NCBI GenBank assembly: GCA_038316995.1
Contig: JBBQAZ010000002.1
Coordinates: 19 to 64,018 of the forward strand
From: Candidatus Saccharimonadales bacterium
GTDB lineage: Bacteria; Patescibacteriota; Saccharimonadia; Saccharimonadales; JAXHNE01
Direction: 5' to 3'
Length of the DNA stretch: 64,000 nt
The notes below the pieces were generated by a model. The model did no database searches. It was not told the origin of the DNA and saw only the letters and a program-made list of their open reading frames with translations. Both the position numbers and the translations under genes were made by a program. Shown one piece after another: positions 18,852 through 52,391 of the stretch (positions are counted from its first letter, which is position 1; the number at the start of each line of letters is the position of its first letter).

Positions 18852-18927
18852 TGGTGGGGGCGGTAGGATTTGAACCTACGACCAATCAGTTATGAGCCGA
18901 CTGCTCTAACCACTGAGCTACGCCCCC
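18852..18927 (-). tRNA. tRNA with CAT anticodon (elongator Met or lysidine-modified Ile2)
   Basis: The reverse complement folds as a cloverleaf: GGGGGCG acceptor, GCTC/GAGC D-stem (C11:G24), CTCATAA loop, GTAGG-TTCAAAT-CCTAC T-arm, encoded CCA. Confidence 0.85.
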
Positions 18928-37750: not shown

Positions 37751-38326
37751 CTAGTGTTTTATAAGTGGGAGTTCAACAAGTGGTAAGCCAGCAGCGTCTG
37801 CTAATTCACGAATTTGCTCTTTACTGAAGGGTGTTTCTTCTGTTGGATCTTGTGGTTCAACCCAAAAAAACGCTTGGGCAGAAATTTCTTTAGCTCTCAA
37901 GAGGACTTCATTATGGTCATGTATTTGCGTTGATTCCATGAGTTTATCAGGGTCTTGAACTGGATAATTCTGAACTATTTCATCATATGTTTTGTCCTGT
38001 GTGTAAATGTCACGGTAGTTCGTGGCTAAAATACTCGATTCTGGTGCTGAAAGTATAAGTCCGTGGCAAGCAGACGTCCCCTGGAACAACACGGGGTGAT
38101 CCTGATCTACGAGACTACTCGATAAAGTTTCCATTTTGTTCAGGATTGAGCAGTTATTAACAAGATATTCTACAGGTTCGGCATCTAGATTCAGTGGGTC
38201 CGTTACGCCACTGTCGATATGCAGTAAGAATCTAAAAGATGTCGGGTCAAAGTCTAAAGGATTAGATAGATTGCCCCAAACAGGGACTGTATCTTGTTCG
38301 TGACTGATTTGTAGATTTTCGTTCAT
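37751..38326 (-). CDS. hypothetical protein (191 aa)
   Basis: ORF only; acidic, no motif recognised. Confidence 0.5.
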   Translation of the reverse strand: MNENLQISHEQDTVPVWGNLSNPLDFDPTSFRFLLHIDSGVTDPLNLDAEPVEYLVNNCSILNKMETLSSSLVDQDHPVLFQGTSACHGLILSAPESSILATNYRDIYTQDKTYDEIVQNYPVQDPDKLMESTQIHDHNEVLLRAKEISAQAFFWVEPQDPTEETPFSKEQIRELADAAGLPLVELPLIKH

Positions 38327-38463
38327 TTTGATTTTTAATTAACATCTATATTATATATACTTAATAGATATTTGTCAAGTAGCTTTGTTGAAATCAAACA
38401 TTGACTAGGGGTGTTTAATCTGTTAATTTATAGATTGCTATTTGCTATCATGCAGATTGATAT

Positions 38464-38538
38464 CGCGGGGTAGAGCAGCGGCAGCTCGTGTGGCTCATAA
38501 CCACAAGGTCGGAGGTTCGAGTCCTCCCCCCGCTACCA
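38464..38538 (+). tRNA. initiator-type tRNA-Met (CAT)
   Basis: CGCGGGG...CCCCGCT acceptor with a C1xU72 mismatch, A11:U24 in the D-stem, CTCATAA loop, GGAGG-TTCGAGT-CCTCC T-arm, encoded CCA. Only two of the three canonical G:C pairs are in the anticodon stem. Confidence 0.85.
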
Positions 38539-38697
38539 AGGTTTGGTTATCTCATTCGTGAGGTAAGCAAACCTTTTTTAGTTGTGTTAGACTCGAACCG
38601 AAAGGCGAAAACAGCCAGTGGCTGTTTGAGTTTTCCTTGCTTGGCCGAGCGAGATGCTTTAGCTCTCGAGCGAGCAAATTTAGGCGAGTCCTCCCCC
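38532..38697 (+). repeat. tRNA-linked 166-bp unit, copy A
   Basis: Hand alignment to 41445-41610 gives 6 substitutions and no indels. Starts in the last 7 nt of tRNA-fMet and ends in gagtcctccccc, the 5' half of the tRNA T-loop/acceptor segment. Confidence 0.9.
38540..38579 (+). terminator. hairpin + T-run directly after tRNA-fMet (part of repeat unit A)
   Basis: GGTTTG-gttatctcattcgtgaggtaag-CAAACC followed by tttttt. Confidence 0.6.
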
Positions 38698-38757
38698 GGT
38701 TTATAAAAATATGAGACAAAATTGAAGAAGCTCAGCTTCTATCATATCCAAATATTA

Positions 38758-39369
38758 CTAAACTTTGTCGAATATTTTGAACAATGGCTGGAAATCTTCA
38801 GATTTTACAAATATCGTTATTTCATTAAAAGTTGAAACGAGCTCCACAATAGTGATTCCGCTTGCTGCAATGTCCAGAAGAATTGTTGCATACACTGCAT
38901 GAATTTCTGAACTATTTATTGGTAAACCAAGACAAAGAGCAGATAGCTTAGTGATTTTTCTTAGCTGGGACTTTTTACTCAGTAATTTTTCATCCTCCGA
39001 ACTAATAATTATGGTATGTTCGTTCGTTCCTGTAGTTTGTACGAAATATCTAACTGAATCTGCTACAGTTTCTGCGCCTGTGTGTCCTCTAATATAGTTA
39101 AGCGCACTGAGATTATGATAGGAGCCATTGATTTGAATATTCTGAGGTTTTAGAAAAGCACCGACTACGTCTTTGGAAGATTTAGTAGAATATCTTCTTA
39201 GCGCCATCGAAATACTCTCAAGATTAACTTTTTGGCCTAACTGAGTTTCGATATTACTCCGAAAGAATTTAGCTACTGCTCTAATATTTAACATATCAGA
39301 GGTTAATAAGACTGCAATAAGTGGGTTTTTATCAAGTTCTACTCTTGTGAGTTCGGATATAGTTTTCAT
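38758..39369 (-). CDS. hypothetical protein with ACT-like C-terminal region
   Basis: ORF 38758-39459; ATG at 39369 (MKTISELT) preferred. The C-terminal GITIVELVSTFNEITIFVKSEDF resembles an ACT fold. Weak call. Confidence 0.4.
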   Translation of the reverse strand: MKTISELTRVELDKNPLIAVLLTSDMLNIRAVAKFFRSNIETQLGQKVNLESISMALRRYSTKSSKDVVGAFLKPQNIQINGSYHNLSALNYIRGHTGAETVADSVRYFVQTTGTNEHTIIISSEDEKLLSKKSQLRKITKLSALCLGLPINSSEIHAVYATILLDIAASGITIVELVSTFNEITIFVKSEDFQPLFKIFDKV

Positions 39370-39481
39370 GTTATAAATATAACACATTCTGTAATATTTG
39401 CAATAAAACAACAAAAATTTTATAAATATTTTTAAATGTCTTATTGTTTCTTTGTGCAAATAATTAATAGGAGTGAAAGAA

Positions 39482-39955
39482 ATGAAATATAAAAGAGCTT
39501 TTCCGACTTGTAGAACTTCAAGAAGCCAAGAAGTACCAGATACATATAATGAATTGTTTTGTGAAGGGGAAATGCCTACACCTGATATGACAGATTTACT
39601 AAGGAGTCAGATCGAATCACACAGTGGAGACCCTGCTTCGGACGCATACTATGGCCCTATAGCAACGCACTCGATATACCTAGACACTCAAGAAATACCT
39701 TTACTTGGATGGCAGGAAGTAGTTCTAAGAAGGGTGAGGTTGAGGCAGCTTGGCTGGAACGCAATCAGTGGGGTGCTAGTAGATTCGTGGAGTAGACCAA
39801 TGGATTCACTTATGCGATTTTTAGACAGAAACCAGGAATCAAAAATCAGAGCAAACGAATTATTTCTTGGGCCTTATTGTTCCAGCGACGATATTCTCAA
39901 ACCTGGAATTATGGTTTATGACCCTATACTACATAAGCCAAATTCCACTCATTAA
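39482..39955 (+). CDS. hypothetical protein (157 aa)
   Basis: AGGAG SD lies 8 nt before the ATG at 39482. No motif recognised. Confidence 0.45.
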   Translation: MKYKRAFPTCRTSRSQEVPDTYNELFCEGEMPTPDMTDLLRSQIESHSGDPASDAYYGPIATHSIYLDTQEIPLLGWQEVVLRRVRLRQLGWNAISGVLVDSWSRPMDSLMRFLDRNQESKIRANELFLGPYCSSDDILKPGIMVYDPILHKPNSTH

Positions 39956-39991
39956 AATAGTGAATAAATAATCTAGAGAAAAGGAAATAAT

Positions 39992-40237
39992 ATGAGAAAT
40001 GAATACTATGAAGGCGTAGTGGTGTCTTGCGTGATGAACGTGAGCATGAACTGCATACCAGAAGGCACAGTAACACGCGAACAATATATGAGATATGGCG
40101 GGATGTTACTTAGAGGCAGAGCAGATGCACAGCCTATAGGTATTGTTGAGCCAGCAGAGGAACAATTAAAAGAGTTAATTGTGGATCAGGCACACGAGCT
40201 ATACGAAGGTGGTCGCCAAGATAGATGTTTAATTTAG
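39992..40237 (+). CDS. hypothetical protein (81 aa)
   Basis: AAGGAAA SD-like box precedes the ATG. No motif recognised. Confidence 0.4.
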   Translation: MRNEYYEGVVVSCVMNVSMNCIPEGTVTREQYMRYGGMLLRGRADAQPIGIVEPAEEQLKELIVDQAHELYEGGRQDRCLI

Positions 40238-40343
40238 TTGAGACAAGCTTGATTAATTTAACGAAATTAATCAGTCTGGCCACCACGCATATGACTGCAA
40301 AAAACAGAGGTTATTATCCTCTGTTTTTTGGTATAGTGACTAC

Positions 40344-40988
40344 ATGGATTCATTAATTCCATTTTACCAAGCTTTTCCAACACCTGGACATCCTAAAGGC
40401 GTACATTGCGTAGAAACTGCACTAAAGATGATTCTAGGCTATTTTGAGCCTGACCGGGAATATTCCATAAATGAGCTTGAAAAAATCACAGCGAAAAAAC
40501 CTGAAAAGGGTAGCTGGAGCTTTGATTGGTCAATATGGTTTGTTGCGCAAGGATATAATATAAAGCATTATTCTACTTTTGACTTTGAAGCATTCAAAAG
40601 AGACGGTGTTGAATATATACGACGTGATTACGGTGATGAAATAGCGGACTGGCAACTTACGAATTCTGACATAGGGCGCGCTAGGTCATTAGTAGATGAG
40701 TACTTAGAAAAAGTGGAAATTGTAAATCGCAAACCAACAATTGAAGACATACGATCAGAAATAAGTCAGAAGTCGGTTGTTAAGCCGATGGTGAATAGTA
40801 ACGTTTTAAATAATATGAAGGGCTACGAAGGACATTCAGTAGTAGTTCTAAATATAGACAATGAGTATATTTGGTTTCATGATCCTGGATTACCAGCATT
40901 TAAAAACAGAAAAATTAATCACGAAAAATTCCAAAGTGCCATGAATAGCTTCGGTGGTGAAATGGATGTAATAAGAAGGCCACGATGA
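40344..40988 (+). CDS. papain-fold cysteine peptidase, C39-like
   Basis: Candidate triad order Cys (GVHCVETALKMIL), His (YEGHSVVVL), Asp (WFHDPG), as in the Peptidase_C39-like family. Confidence 0.5.
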   Translation: MDSLIPFYQAFPTPGHPKGVHCVETALKMILGYFEPDREYSINELEKITAKKPEKGSWSFDWSIWFVAQGYNIKHYSTFDFEAFKRDGVEYIRRDYGDEIADWQLTNSDIGRARSLVDEYLEKVEIVNRKPTIEDIRSEISQKSVVKPMVNSNVLNNMKGYEGHSVVVLNIDNEYIWFHDPGLPAFKNRKINHEKFQSAMNSFGGEMDVIRRPR

Positions 40989-41389
40989 AAGATATTGAAT
41001 TTCTGAAAATGGCTGTTAATGAAGGTAACAAGGTAGAACAACCATATAATTTTGGTGCTGTTGTAGTTAAAGACGGAAAAATAATTGCATCCGAACACAA
41101 CCACGTCACAGAACAGCATAACCCCTTTCTTCATTCTGAAGTGTGTGCAATCATCGCAGCTTGCAAAGTATTAAAAACCCACCATATTGATGGGGCCGTT
41201 CTTTATTCAAGCCACGAACCCTGTACGATGTGTTTAAGTTGTGCTGCATGGGCGCATATAGACAGAATAGTGTTTGCAATTTCAGCAAAAGAACAAGATT
41301 TTAATTATGAATTCAAGAATCCTGATACTATGAATCTTTCAAAAAATTTAGTTAAGCCAATTAAAATAGAACACTTAATTTTGAGTTAA
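40985..41389 (+). CDS. CDA-fold zinc deaminase (TadA/GuaD/dCMP deaminase-like)
   Basis: HSEVCAI and PCTMCLSCAAWA zinc-binding motifs. Start overlaps the peptidase stop (ATGA). Confidence 0.75.
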   Translation: MKDIEFLKMAVNEGNKVEQPYNFGAVVVKDGKIIASEHNHVTEQHNPFLHSEVCAIIAACKVLKTHHIDGAVLYSSHEPCTMCLSCAAWAHIDRIVFAISAKEQDFNYEFKNPDTMNLSKNLVKPIKIEHLILS

Positions 41390-41444
41390 TAACTTCCAGC
41401 GACTTAACTCCTCAAGGATAATGTTCTAAGACGAAGCAACCTGG

Positions 41445-41610
41445 GCTACCAAGGTTTGGTTATCTCATTCGTGAGGTAAGCAAACCTTTTTTAGTTGTGT
41501 TGGACTCGAACCGATAGGCGAAAACAGCCGGGGGCTGTTTGAGTTTTCCTTGCTTGGCTGAGCGAGATGCTTTAGCTCTCGAGCGAACAAATTTAGGCGA
41601 GTCCTCCCCC
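41445..41610 (+). repeat. tRNA-linked 166-bp unit, copy B
   Basis: Direct repeat of 38532-38697. Begins with gctaccaagg, the 3' half of the tRNA end, preceded by unrelated aacctgg. Confidence 0.9.
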
Positions 41611-41620
41611 CGCTACCAAG
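41598..41620 (+). other. displaced copy of the tRNA-fMet 3' end (T-loop to CCA+ag)
   Basis: cgagtcctccccccgctaccaag is identical to 38518-38540. No 5' tRNA half precedes it. Confidence 0.85.
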
Positions 41621-41626
41621 AAAAGA

Positions 41627-41651
41627 GTCCATCCATGCGATGGGCTTTTTT
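41627..41651 (+). terminator. Rho-independent terminator (probable native tRNA-fMet terminator)
   Basis: GTCCATC-catgc-GATGGGC followed by tttttt. Confidence 0.65.
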
Positions 41652-41750
41652 CTTTTGTTTCGTAGATACGACGAGAACCAGATGCGTGATCGAAAGCGCT
41701 AACTTACTATTTCAATTCATCAAAATATAATCATTAGCTTTAGTCTTATT

Positions 41751-42818
41751 TCAAGCAGCCATCAAAACACCTTGAATTTGGCTGGTTGCAAGATCGCCAA
41801 GTGACCTCGGCAAATTAACCCCCCAACAGTGGTCTCCATTTTCAACTTTTACCGCCGTATGGTTTGTTTCGATGACATATTTTTGTAATTCTATCGGCGA
41901 ACAGATCGGGTCATCATCACCAAATGCAAACTCAATTTGGACAGATGGTACTTTTCGCTCTAGTGCCTCTACTCTATCTAGTAACTTTCCTCGAGTAAAA
42001 GAGAGCCACAAACTAAGGTTTATTGGCCTCCAGATTACGTCTTCGATGGTTTTCAGTTTGCTCGATAATTTCATAGCTAATGAGCCAATGTTCTCAGGAG
42101 TAAGTATAGAAAGCCCACTATTACGGATGTGCTCATCCATGTGTCTGCCTGAATTGGCAAATTTCTTAAGAATGCCAGGCATTGTGTCTTCGATTACTCC
42201 TGGCGAGTTTGAGACCAATCCTGCGATTACTTCACGATCTTTTGAAAGACTTAAAAGTATGTCAGGTGTCAAAAAAGCCGCAAGCGAATAACCAGCCGAT
42301 ATTACTCGTTCACTTTCTGGAAGCTCGTCTACGACAACTCTGGCGATTTTGTCGGTAATGGGGCTCAGTGAGCCACGGGCAAGTTTGATTTGTTCAAGAG
42401 GGCATAACGAGACATTAGACATCCTGCTGGCGCTCGCCGTCTGCAGGACCTGGGGTGTAACCCCATCGTTTCCTACTACGCCCTGAGCCCTCATTGATTC
42501 GAACATAAATTTTCCACGGAAACAGTTAATCTCTGATAAATCAGTTGCAAAAGGGTTTGCCATTACAACTACCGTTTCCGATGGCTCTTCGCCGTGAACA
42601 CAGAAGTCCAATCCGTGTCTAGAATGGGTAACTTCCGGTAGATCATCAAAAATTGCTTGTTTGCTACCAAACTTTGCAATGCCATTATAGATGTTGACGA
42701 GTTCTTGTACCGATTCTGGGGGTGGACGGTTTAGAAACTCGGTGATTTGACCAGGTTCGTTAGAAAAATTGGCAACAGATGACCCAGGATGTGATTCGGG
42801 ATTCATTATTGCAGTCAT
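41751..42818 (-). CDS. alpha/beta-hydrolase-like protein, hypothetical
   Basis: Nucleophile-elbow-like SAGYSLAA, later GDDDP and GDHCWG in Ser-Asp-His order. Weak call. Confidence 0.4.
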   Translation of the reverse strand: MTAIMNPESHPGSSVANFSNEPGQITEFLNRPPPESVQELVNIYNGIAKFGSKQAIFDDLPEVTHSRHGLDFCVHGEEPSETVVVMANPFATDLSEINCFRGKFMFESMRAQGVVGNDGVTPQVLQTASASRMSNVSLCPLEQIKLARGSLSPITDKIARVVVDELPESERVISAGYSLAAFLTPDILLSLSKDREVIAGLVSNSPGVIEDTMPGILKKFANSGRHMDEHIRNSGLSILTPENIGSLAMKLSSKLKTIEDVIWRPINLSLWLSFTRGKLLDRVEALERKVPSVQIEFAFGDDDPICSPIELQKYVIETNHTAVKVENGDHCWGVNLPRSLGDLATSQIQGVLMAA

Positions 42819-50993: not shown

Positions 50994-51110
50994 CTATAAA
51001 CGTGATATATATCACAAAGAATGAGTAATTGACCTTATAGAGTTAAATTTTTAAAGACTTTATTATTGTATCTGAAATGCAATTAAGGAGTAGTTAAAGG
51101 AGCTGTGAAT

Positions 51111-51434
51111 ATGGATGCAATACACACTAAAAAACAGACGCCAATAGACATAATTTCTAAAATTTCTCAATCAGCTATGTGGTTTTTGATTACCGGGATT
51201 ATGATTGTTGTTTTTTCAAGTGGATGGGATATATTATTTGGAAGTGAGCTTAGCCACCCTATATGGCAAGCAGGCTACAACTGGATGCCCTTACTAGAAA
51301 ATATTTTTGTTGTTTCAGTTTTGGGTGGAGCAGCGCAAGGAGGCATACCATCGGCTGTTTATTTGCTAACAAACAGGGAAGAAAAAGAGGAAGTCCCAAT
51401 ACTGCTTACGAGAATATCCTTGCTAAAGTCGTAG
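51111..51434 (+). CDS. small membrane protein, hypothetical
   Basis: AAGGAG SD lies 8 nt before the ATG at 51111. Two or three TM helices. Confidence 0.45.
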   Translation: MDAIHTKKQTPIDIISKISQSAMWFLITGIMIVVFSSGWDILFGSELSHPIWQAGYNWMPLLENIFVVSVLGGAAQGGIPSAVYLLTNREEKEEVPILLTRISLLKS

Positions 51435-51487: not shown

Positions 51488-51557
51488 TACATCTGTTACT
51501 AGTAAAACAAAAATATCAAAATAAAACCGCAGCGGAAACCAAAGAAAGGCATACATA

Positions 51558-51641
51558 ATGGCGCTAAAACTTGCGTTTGAGTTTGCTCCGACACAAAATC
51601 AGAGCATTCTCAAAATAGATCGACTTCTTGGTCGTCTATAA
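51558..51641 (+). CDS. possible 27-aa peptide, or part of a small RNA
   Basis: Hand translation gives MALKLAFEFAPTQNQSILKIDRLLGRL*. It sits between a strong promoter and a strong terminator, but the SD is weak. Confidence 0.2.
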   Translation: MALKLAFEFAPTQNQSILKIDRLLGRL

Positions 51642-51653
51642 ACATCAGAACTT

Positions 51654-51681
51654 AAAAAAGCTCGGGACGCCGAGCTTTTTT
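51654..51681. terminator. bidirectional Rho-independent terminator
   Basis: aaaaaAGCTCGG-gacg-CCGAGCTttttt. On the minus strand it follows the displaced tRNA 3' fragment. Confidence 0.75.
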
Positions 51682-51684
51682 ATT

Positions 51685-51853
51685 TGGTAGCAGGACCGAG
51701 ATTTGAACTCGGTCTAAATATGCTCTCTCTCCGGCAGCTGCCGGATCGTTCGGCCAAGCATGGAAAACTCAAACAGCCAGTGGCTGTTCTCGCCTACGGC
51801 CCCGAGTTTAAGTCAATACCAATGAAAAACCCCACAATAGTGGGGCCTTACAT
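51685..51853 (-). repeat. tRNA-linked unit, diverged copy C
   Basis: On the minus strand: terminator hairpin, a 49-nt core (51794-51746) with 4 differences from 38604-38652, a variable hairpin, gagcatatttag, then a copy of the 3' end of the adjacent tRNA (51685-51712). Confidence 0.8.
51825..51847 (-). terminator. hairpin + T-run directly after the tRNA (part of unit C)
   Basis: Minus strand reads CCCCAC-tatt-GTGGGG followed by ttttt. Confidence 0.6.
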
Positions 51854-51930
51854 TGGTAGCAGGACCGAGATTTGAACTCGGGACCTCAGGCTTATGAGTC
51901 CTGCGCTCTAACCAACTGAGCTATCCTGCC
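51854..51930 (-). tRNA. tRNA with CAT anticodon (elongator Met or lysidine-modified Ile2)
   Basis: Reverse complement is GGCAGGA-TA-GCTC-AGTTGGTTA-GAGC-...CTCATAA...-CCGAG-TTCAAAT-CTCGG-TCCTGCT-A-CCA. C11:G24 (elongator type); A31/G39 mismatch closes the loop. Confidence 0.85.
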
Positions 51931-51992
51931 ATATTTTCATTGCAAACTACAGGGGTAGAATATACCATAATTATCGCCTGATGACTAGCAAG

Positions 51993-52391
51993 TTATGGGC
52001 GAAACCCTGTTGCAATTAAGTTTTTGAGAGGAAGAAAAAGCGGTTCTGGCAGGTTATCCCAGTTTGCCCAATGCCATTCAATCATTTTTTCGTGCTCTAG
52101 AACTACTGGCTCACCACTGGTCCAGTTCGCACGCATGTAAATTGTCACATAGTGTTTATTTTCTGATTTAAAAATATCGTTGGTAACTCCTGCAAAAGCA
52201 ACTTCGCCAATTGATAAGCCTGTTTCTTCGTCAACTTCACGCTTTGCGCATTCTTCCCATGACTCTCCGAATTCTAAATGGCCACCCGGGAAGCACCAGG
52301 TTCCATTACCGTGCGCGTTTAGTCGCTTACCAACTAAAACCTCACCATTTTTCACAATACAAACACCAATGCCTACTTTTGGTTGTTCCAT
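51993..52391 (-). CDS. Nudix hydrolase (MutT-like)
   Basis: Nudix box GGHLEFGESWEECAKREVDEETGL. Confidence 0.8.
   Translation of the reverse strand: MEQPKVGIGVCIVKNGEVLVGKRLNAHGNGTWCFPGGHLEFGESWEECAKREVDEETGLSIGEVAFAGVTNDIFKSENKHYVTIYMRANWTSGEPVVLEHEKMIEWHWANWDNLPEPLFLPLKNLIATGFRP

Follow-up and report, generated by a model that had tools for sequence, protein, structure and literature searches.

To our knowledge, transfer RNA (tRNA) genes, the classic docking sites of mobile DNA, are occupied in every well-understood case by elements with their own integrase. Cis-mobilizable elements (CIMEs) of Streptococcus thermophilus, reported by Pavlovic et al. in 2004, are flanked by attachment (att) sites and lack an integrase. 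Integron attC and the CTX-phage attP(+) are recombination sites formed by a folded single strand, with host XerCD acting in the case of CTX, and the guide sequences of IS200/IS605 and the bridge RNAs of IS110 are examples of nucleic-acid-guided target choice. According to the Islander definition, an island lies in a tRNA or transfer-messenger RNA (tmRNA) gene, the gene is restored by the insert and the displaced fragment stands at the distal end (PMC4383910). In this study, a 64,000-nt stretch of Candidatus Saccharimonadales bacterium DNA (assembly GCA_038316995.1, contig JBBQAZ010000002.1, positions 19 to 64,018 of the forward strand; hereafter the window) was analyzed. Three units of the window, A, B and C, located behind tRNA(CAT) genes or in an array there, are members of a Saccharibacteria-specific, protein-less family that is integrated in tRNA and tmRNA genes.

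Unit C was surveyed by direct reading of 51500-52100 on the minus strand together with ARAGORN and Rfam. Its host tRNA(CAT) is intact with the CCA encoded, and an exact copy of the tRNA 3' end, 28 nt long, lies 153 nt after the tRNA. This copy, hereafter the tail, is the displaced gene fragment. The same integration, restoration and displaced fragment are found at about 40 loci and also behind tmRNA. The tyrosine or serine integrase that an island would carry is missing from unit C, which contains no open reading frame (ORF), the neighbouring genes of the family including just two syntenic Xer-like ones. The hairpin with a T-run behind the CCA very probably forms the left portion of the insert. 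Judging from its sequence, the hairpin behind the tail is probably native and works in both directions, serving the converging ORF 51105-51434 as a terminator too. Three occurrences of the core motif are present in the window (38610, 41523 and 51762-51788), compared with none in 100 shuffles, and an nhmmer profile detects exactly the three copies A, B and C and no fourth (E <= 3e-15). For unit C, the z-scores of the minimum free energy are modest, with -2.15 for one strand and -1.98 for the other.

A preliminary description, made from the letters alone, had delimited a 169-nt unit behind the tRNA at 51854-51930, and direct reading, ARAGORN and Rfam bear this out. The parts that it listed are likewise present, namely the hairpin and T-run directly after the CCA (51853-51819), the 49-nt core (51794-51746 versus 38604-38652, with exactly 4 differing positions), the variable hairpin tccggcagctgccgga (51745-51730), the segment gagcatatttag 3' of it, the 28 nt of the adjacent tRNA's 3' end (51712-51685) and a hairpin with a T-run after the tail. 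A segment upstream of the core, which is antisense to the tRNA, had been overlooked. The compensatory double change claimed for the helix closing the variable hairpin (TTGCT/AGCAA versus ATGCT/AGCAT) was an error, as copy B reads TTGCT...AACAA with a C·A mismatch. Family-wide, this pair shows no covariation among 65 aligned copies (TG 26, TT 16, TA 8, AG 4, AT 3, TC 2, AC 2, CA 2, CT 1 and GG 1).

Members of the family are about 150-170 bp long, carry no protein-coding gene and share one order of parts. The tRNA (...GGTT/CAAGTCC...CCA) is followed by a long hairpin beginning at or in the CCA, the antisense segment, CCG-ATAGGCGAAAAC and helix P2, and then by TTTGAGTTTTCCWTGCTTGGCC, the P3/P4 hairpin, a short linker and the tail. 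The core block GAGUUUUCCWUGCUUGGCC lies between P2 and the P3/P4 hairpin, and the linker is ATTTAG in the clade of the window and AGAATAAC in the largest subfamily. Sizes are uniform, the tail being found about 142-176 nt after the tRNA. The tail repeats the gene in direct orientation, from the T-loop through the CCA plus 0-1 nt; the repeat starts with the T-loop sequence (TTCRANTCC) and measures 13-29 nt across units. That the tail copies the 3' end of the neighbouring tRNA, as proposed in the preliminary description, is true of most loci, where it is exact over at least 16 nt, while the tails of L008, L039, L046 and L053 belong to another tRNA. Unit-less tRNA genes in other genomes have no hairpin after the CCA, and the hairpin therefore comes with the insert, in line with the earlier guess that the insert supplies a new terminator hairpin.

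The antisense segment is an 8-15-nt reverse complement of the unit's own tRNA, centred on the left edge of the repeat, so that it covers about 4 nt outside and about 6 nt inside the tail. Its median perfect complementary run is 9 nt with its own tRNA versus 5 nt with other tRNAs, and runs of at least 10 nt occur in 46% of units with the own tRNA versus 9% with other tRNAs. The rule is also valid for tmRNAs with unusual T-loops, and the register of the segment moves together with the start of the repeat in unit C, in the tmRNA units and in the L046 type; in unit C, both are displaced by 7 nt towards the 5' side. The segment can pair with the start of the tail over 6-8 bp. An antisense tRNA or pseudo-tRNA was rejected as an explanation, since the segment has just 8-15 nt, the adjoining bases do not extend the tRNA and ARAGORN is silent.

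To define the family, one genome per species was scanned with TTTGAGTTTTCCNTGCTTGG, which gave 33 loci, 26 of them true units, and a metagenome scan added 48 further loci (44 true). After duplicate removal, 66 distinct copies from public genomes and metagenomes remained, and all true copies from named genomes are in Saccharibacteria/Saccharimonadales or Patescibacteria. Forty copies have a same-strand tRNA end 19-103 nt upstream of the core motif, mostly at 79-94 nt; others lie behind tmRNA, confirmed by Rfam at five loci (L001, L042, L048, L060 and L076), and the remaining copies are at contig edges or within arrays. The targets comprise at least 17 tRNA species plus tmRNA. Host tRNAs include those for Val, Lys, Pro (three anticodons), Arg (three), Leu (five), Asn, Asp, Tyr, Ser and Met, the tRNA-Met genes being initiator-like and elongator alike, and the CAU anticodon of the window is therefore incidental. 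One of the two readings offered in the preliminary description, a miniature element of CAU-anticodon tRNA genes, is the best-supported one as regards the element, and too narrow as regards the anticodon. Units are present behind tRNA-Leu(TAG) in six sampled loci. About one third of tRNAs carry a unit, and which ones do varies among related genomes.

The family appears to be previously undescribed. No description of it, including the motif itself, was found in the literature, and with Rfam 15 only tRNA passed the gathering threshold, scans at E up to 10 giving noise only over the units, so that a known RNA family was rejected. No core match was obtained with blastn against 50,697 phage and 72,556 plasmid records or in a scan of IMG/VR viral contigs, and the 50 matches of a second viral scan with a 17-mer extend over no more than 28 profile positions, namely the 17-mer with the bases next to it. 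A phage or plasmid origin was rejected in view of the absence from these collections. The unit is also not protein-coding, as the reverse-strand ORFs of A/B and C differ in frame over the core and the P2 changes are compensatory, not synonymous.

Covariation was tested on the 65-sequence alignment with 500 shuffles and slid controls. P2 (aaacagcc/ggctgttt) is paired in 99.6% of cells, and four of its pairs have changed on both sides (46 cells), a level reached in 0/500 shuffles; all slid controls collapse. P2 contains 24 G·U pairs and 0 A·C, and the constrained strand is therefore the tRNA-sense strand. Within the type II subfamily, the distal hairpin P4 behaves similarly, being 92% paired with 10 double-change cells (0/500 shuffles) and with G·U present, and over P2 and P4 together all G·U pairs lie on the tRNA-sense strand. 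At the P4 position, other subfamilies have a hairpin whose sequence is unrelated. Comparison of the related copies L014 and L078 shows much stronger conservation in the core than in the post-CCA hairpin. The alternative suggestion of the preliminary description, a structured module, is thus partly borne out, with covarying P2 and P4 helices and strand-specific G·U pairs, although the compensatory pair cited for it was wrong.

No recombinase is encoded in cis. Pfam searches of 148 ORFs within 4.5 kb of units, together with all-against-all clustering of neighbouring ORFs, gave Phage_integrase only twice, both times as XerC/D-like proteins of 308-313 aa in the same syntenic position near tRNA-Arg(CCT), and an integrase in cis was rejected on these grounds. 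In two genomes, these genes (L022:1555-2493(+) and L044:10425-11348(-)) are found at a distance of 1-2.4 kb from the unit that follows tRNA-Arg(CCT); they are the only recombinase near any unit and probably reflect housekeeping synteny. The clusters of neighbouring ORFs reproduce synteny between related genomes alone, with no protein family recurring beside units, and DEDD and TnpA/TnpB are not among the 25 most frequent Pfam families of the 148 ORFs. No recombinase was found among 20 scanned ORFs of the window, nor among the cargo ORFs of L034 and L062, which were judged by reading only. Full-length islands carrying the core and a tyrosine integrase, named in the preliminary description as the finding that would turn the unit into an ordinary island scar, were looked for, and no longer integrase-bearing version exists among about 70 loci. 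A related autonomous element sharing att or arm sequences was likewise absent from the genome, metagenome, viral, phage and plasmid collections.

Several copies are rearranged. Tandem copies (L022, L003 and L013), a 5'-truncated copy (L045) and decayed tails (L020, L028 and L033) occur besides the four tails of another tRNA. In L056 (1100-1300, minus strand), the unit is inverted relative to tRNA-Met and a full 25-nt inverted tRNA 3' end occupies the position of the antisense segment, which may therefore be the stump of a second, inverted tail. In L067 (300-720, minus strand), a unit is joined to tRNA-Ser at the 5' end in antisense, the D-arm read in this direction resembling a T-loop; its 15-nt segment matches the D-arm, the repeat ends in ...CTCCA and a degenerate inverted second copy is placed tail-to-tail. 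This layout suggests that the target is recognized as a T-loop-like sequence plus CCA, not as a functional tRNA end. Core identity is 0.84 between different tRNAs of one genome and 0.76, equal to the all-pairs mean, for the same tRNA in different genomes, showing that core similarity follows the genome, not the tRNA. Integrase-less cargo flanked or abutted by units is found between A and B of the window (2.75 kb) and in L034 and L062 (1.2-1.3 kb).

The same architecture also occurs with several other cores (His-type, Phe-type, Glu-type and a distant Arg(GCG)-type). These inserts lie behind tRNA-His, Phe, Glu and Arg(GCG) (L006:4474-4641(-), L007:2823-2979(-), L021:1298-1465(+), L004:7137-7285(+) and L046:2140-2316(-)) and consist of a hairpin, an antisense segment, a core of about 100 nt and a tail; the Arg(GCG)-type core is a distant relative with a fully swapped P2 (CCCGCC/GGCGGG). 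A small GGAC-GAA-GTCC hairpin, AAGGACGAAGTCCGCTG, noted at L007:3900-4000 (-) and L021:1420-1450 (+), directly precedes the tail of the Phe-type unit and also interrupts the tail of the L007 unit, so that unit families exchange modules. Another repeat, about 100 nt in length and with no relationship to the unit core, reads from the CCA onward CGYCACAACTAATAT...AACCCCGC...GCGGGGTCT...TTGCTCCT, followed by a hairpin, and was seen after tRNA-His (L010), after the tail of a unit (L035) and between tRNA-Tyr and a unit (L037).

In the window, units A and B are identical at 160/166 positions (Table 1). The cargo between them was inserted in the tail of A about 7-8 nt short of its 3' end and has a slightly lower G+C content than its flanks. 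Its ORFs encode a C39-like peptidase (40344-40988) and, immediately behind it, a cytidine/dCMP-type deaminase (40985-41389) with additional matches to MafB19-like toxin deaminase models, as well as three proteins of unassigned identity; none is a recombinase. The cargo may be a toxin or bacteriocin-processing cassette. Its ends have no similarity to the tRNA 3' end or to att, and a classical att-bearing element was rejected for this reason. From its sequence and position, the terminator-like hairpin after unit B is probably a native one that the converging ORF 41751-42818 uses as well. A sigma-70 promoter that matches the consensus perfectly (TTGACA, 17 nt, TATAAT; 12/12) at 38350-38378 on the minus strand lies just upstream of the ORF 37751-38326 and points away from the tRNA(CAT) gene of unit A. 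A third tRNA(CAT) of the window (18852-18927, minus strand) has neither a unit nor a downstream repeat; by its likeness to E. coli ileX, it may be tRNA-Ile2 (lysidine) rather than tRNA-Met.

Table 1 Features of units A, B and C and of the cargo in the window.
Feature	Position	Strand	Details
Host tRNA(CAT) of unit A, initiator-like	38464-38538	plus	ARAGORN, Rfam
Unit A	38539-38697	plus	hairpin 38539-38579; antisense segment 38590-38599 (gactcgaacc); core 38604-38652
Unit A, further parts		plus	P2 38609-38627; distal hairpin; truncated tail 38685-38697
Cargo in tail of unit A	38698-41444	unstranded	2.75 kb, five ORFs
Unit B	41445-41618	plus	last 7 nt of tRNA (gctacca); hairpin; antisense segment 41503-41512; core 41517-41565
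Tail of unit B, full	41598-41618	plus	
Terminator-like hairpin after unit B	41620-41655	plus	
Host tRNA-Met(CAT) of unit C	51854-51930	minus	ARAGORN; Rfam tRNA model 68.7 bits
Post-CCA hairpin and T-run of unit C, terminator-like	51819-51853	minus	sequence reading
Antisense segment of unit C (aactcggg)	51801-51808	minus	reverse complement of tRNA cccgagtt across the left edge of the direct repeat
Conserved 49-nt core of unit C	51746-51794	minus	hairpin P2, then gagttttccatgcttggcc, then start of P3/P4 hairpin
P2 of unit C	5' strand 51789-51782, loop 51781-51779, 3' strand 51778-51771	minus	
Distal part of unit C	51713-51745	minus	variable hairpin tccggcagctgccgga at 51745-51730, P3 3' strand (gagca), linker tatttaga
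Tail of unit C	51685-51712	minus	28-nt direct repeat: whole T-arm, acceptor 3' strand, CCA
Post-tail hairpin and T-run	51651-51684	minus	sequence reading

We favour, tentatively and with confidence somewhat short of even, the reading that the units are non-autonomous miniature integrative elements of tRNA genes that act as a folded single strand and are served by a recombinase in trans. Insertion would be site-specific, with a crossover between the T-loop and the acceptor 3' strand. The insert would regenerate the 3' end of the gene and add its own terminator hairpin, and the displaced original 3' end would close it as the tail. Catalysis would fall to a recombinase encoded elsewhere, acting on an element folded as single-stranded DNA or RNA, in which the antisense segment could pair with target or tail sequence and thereby present or select the recombination site. 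The nearest analogues of such a mechanism are integron attC, the CTX-phage attP and the guide sequences of IS608. Repeated events would give rise to tandem arrays, and the extra att copy left in the tail could become a landing pad for integrase-less cargo, as in the A-cargo-B arrangement of the window. The data directly show the anatomy, the distribution, the match of segment and tail to the target, the covariation and the lack of a recombinase in cis. We infer mobility, the trans-acting enzyme and the single-stranded intermediate; the strand-specific structure together with a segment matched to target bases outside the repeat points to a folded-strand, trans-enzyme mechanism.

Several points weigh against this reading. 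No insertion polymorphism was seen: a search for exact matches to a flanking NUDIX protein retrieved no other contig, and filled and empty sites were therefore compared across species. Copies within one genome are 13-20% divergent, and A and B are the only ones that hint at recent transposition. The trans-acting enzyme was not found among the neighbouring ORFs or the scanned ORFs of the window. Each new tRNA target demands three matched parts (the regenerated 3' end, the antisense segment and the tail), and no mechanism known to us would provide the whole set. A host function could explain just as well why resident cores are strongly conserved. In addition, the P2 of unit A (38609-38627 plus GAGTTTTCCT) was flagged as terminator-like, while that of unit C was not, and P2 with its U-run may by its sequence be merely an intrinsic terminator; terminators also covary, so that part of the structural signal may be mundane.

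Some of these observations would suit an immobile RNA module or cis-acting cassette of the host that is inherited vertically with its tRNA genes, for example an insulator made of several terminators, or a small RNA in which the antisense segment acts as a 5' seed and pairs with the T-arm or the tail. Gene conversion would then homogenize copies within a genome, and slippage between the repeats would remove them. Covarying helices with G·U on the tRNA-sense strand alone, a core far more conserved than the flanking hairpin in related copies, core subtypes that follow host clades or genomes, the recurrence behind tRNA-Leu(TAG), the terminator-like P2 and the age of within-genome copies agree with such a module. 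Nevertheless, we consider it unlikely, because the units contain no promoter-like site and have a terminator hairpin upstream of them, because only about a third of tRNAs carry one and the set differs between related genomes, and because decayed, truncated, inverted, mismatched-tail and tandem copies are typical of selfish DNA. Several unrelated cores with one architecture also speak against it, and no function accounts for a sense copy of the tRNA 3' end in an RNA. Ordinary scars, in which att-proximal arms remain from internally deleted integrase islands or prophages and the core is an arm-type or regulatory region of attP, are very improbable. A regenerated gene with its displaced fragment is indeed the hallmark of tRNA/tmRNA islands (PMC4383910), and tandem accretion with cargo does occur, yet the absence of any parent element, be it an integrase-bearing version among the loci or a core match in the phage, plasmid and IMG/VR collections, together with the uniform size, where random deletion remnants would vary, weakens this explanation. 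A single core serving more than 17 targets and strand-specific covariation count against it as well.

A stronger version of the single-strand idea holds that the antisense segment and the tail base-pair with both strands of the tRNA gene at the crossover and so programme a recombinase in trans, as IS110 bridge RNAs or IS608 guide sequences choose their targets. The complementarity of the segment to the target, including 4-6 nt beyond the repeat, its shift of register with the start of the repeat, the single conserved scaffold with many targets within one genome, and the coincidence of the structured strand with the strand carrying segment and tail all fit this idea. It is nonetheless quite unlikely in our view, since the units are associated with no recombinase, be it DEDD, HUH or another type, a donor-recognition loop cannot be named, the tail is more simply the displaced gene fragment, and some protection would be required against a free guide directed at an intact essential gene. 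There is a similarly slim chance that the units form a guide-directed, integron-like platform on tRNA genes, with an RNA or single-stranded DNA scaffold, the segment as guide and the tail as cassette landing pad. The units would then be self-contained, programmable insertion modules, whose guide pairs with the T-arm region of a given tRNA or tmRNA gene and so fixes the crossover point for a recombinase from elsewhere in the genome. If so, the ultra-small, naturally competent Saccharibacteria would gather and exchange cassettes without an element-borne integrase.

Whichever reading applies, a conserved gene-less module of 150 bp occupies tRNA sites across a phylum-level lineage of ultra-small bacteria and is overlooked both by island finders that require an integrase and by RNA catalogues such as Rfam. 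If the units move, an enzyme works in trans on a site that is folded and matched to its target, which would amount to a compact, possibly reprogrammable principle of targeting; if they are immobile, they represent an unrecognized class of tRNA-linked RNA. Either way, they mark cargo-entry hotspots in Saccharibacteria genomes, such as that of the peptidase-deaminase cassette in the window, for which TTTGAGTTTTCCNTGCTTGG is a simple sequence marker.

Compared with the known systems, the units share with tRNA/tmRNA islands the 3' site, the restored gene, the displaced fragment from the T-loop to the 3' end and the tandem arrays (PMC4383910). Unlike these islands, which measure kilobases and carry an integrase, the units are gene-less, have 150-170 bp and one core with more than 17 targets, and contain a target-antisense internal segment and structural covariation. 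They resemble CIMEs in having attL/attR-type repeats as flanks without recombination or transfer genes and in accreting in tandem at one site, whereas CIMEs are kilobase deletion derivatives that share the att sites and arms of a known integrative and conjugative element, and the units are far smaller and structured, with no parent found. Like miniature inverted-repeat transposable elements, they are short, ORF-less, multicopy and non-autonomous, and their ends (antisense segment and tail start) can pair over 6-8 bp; unlike them, they lie strictly at tRNA/tmRNA 3' ends, their direct repeat is a functional gene segment and not a short target-site duplication, the sole inverted repeat has the sequence of the target and no transposase-bearing parent was found. 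Analogies with retrons, TnpB omega RNAs, T-boxes, hairpin ribozymes and the homing of CRISPR-associated transposons were dropped because the defining partner gene or motif is absent in each.

As in the IS200/IS605 and IS110 guides, complementarity to the insertion flank resides in a short segment next to a hairpin, and the target changes with the segment. In contrast to these systems, the units regenerate the target gene and leave a direct repeat of 13-29 nt, and they have neither DEDD, TnpA or TnpB nearby nor an Rfam match to the corresponding RNAs, omega RNA included. With attC and CTX attP they share an imperfect inverted repeat (antisense segment plus tail start) around a variable hairpin region, a structure that is kept more than the sequence and on one strand, the lack of an own recombinase, as in CTX and other Xer-exploiting elements, and, with attC arrays, cargo between sites. 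They differ in that the target is the T-loop and acceptor of a tRNA gene instead of attI or dif, with no dif-like sequence; there is no GTTRRRY core site or adjacent IntI, and the repeat starts with the T-loop. Against this background, what appears to be new is an undescribed family of integrase-less tRNA-gene elements, with a minority chance that it embodies a new targeting principle.

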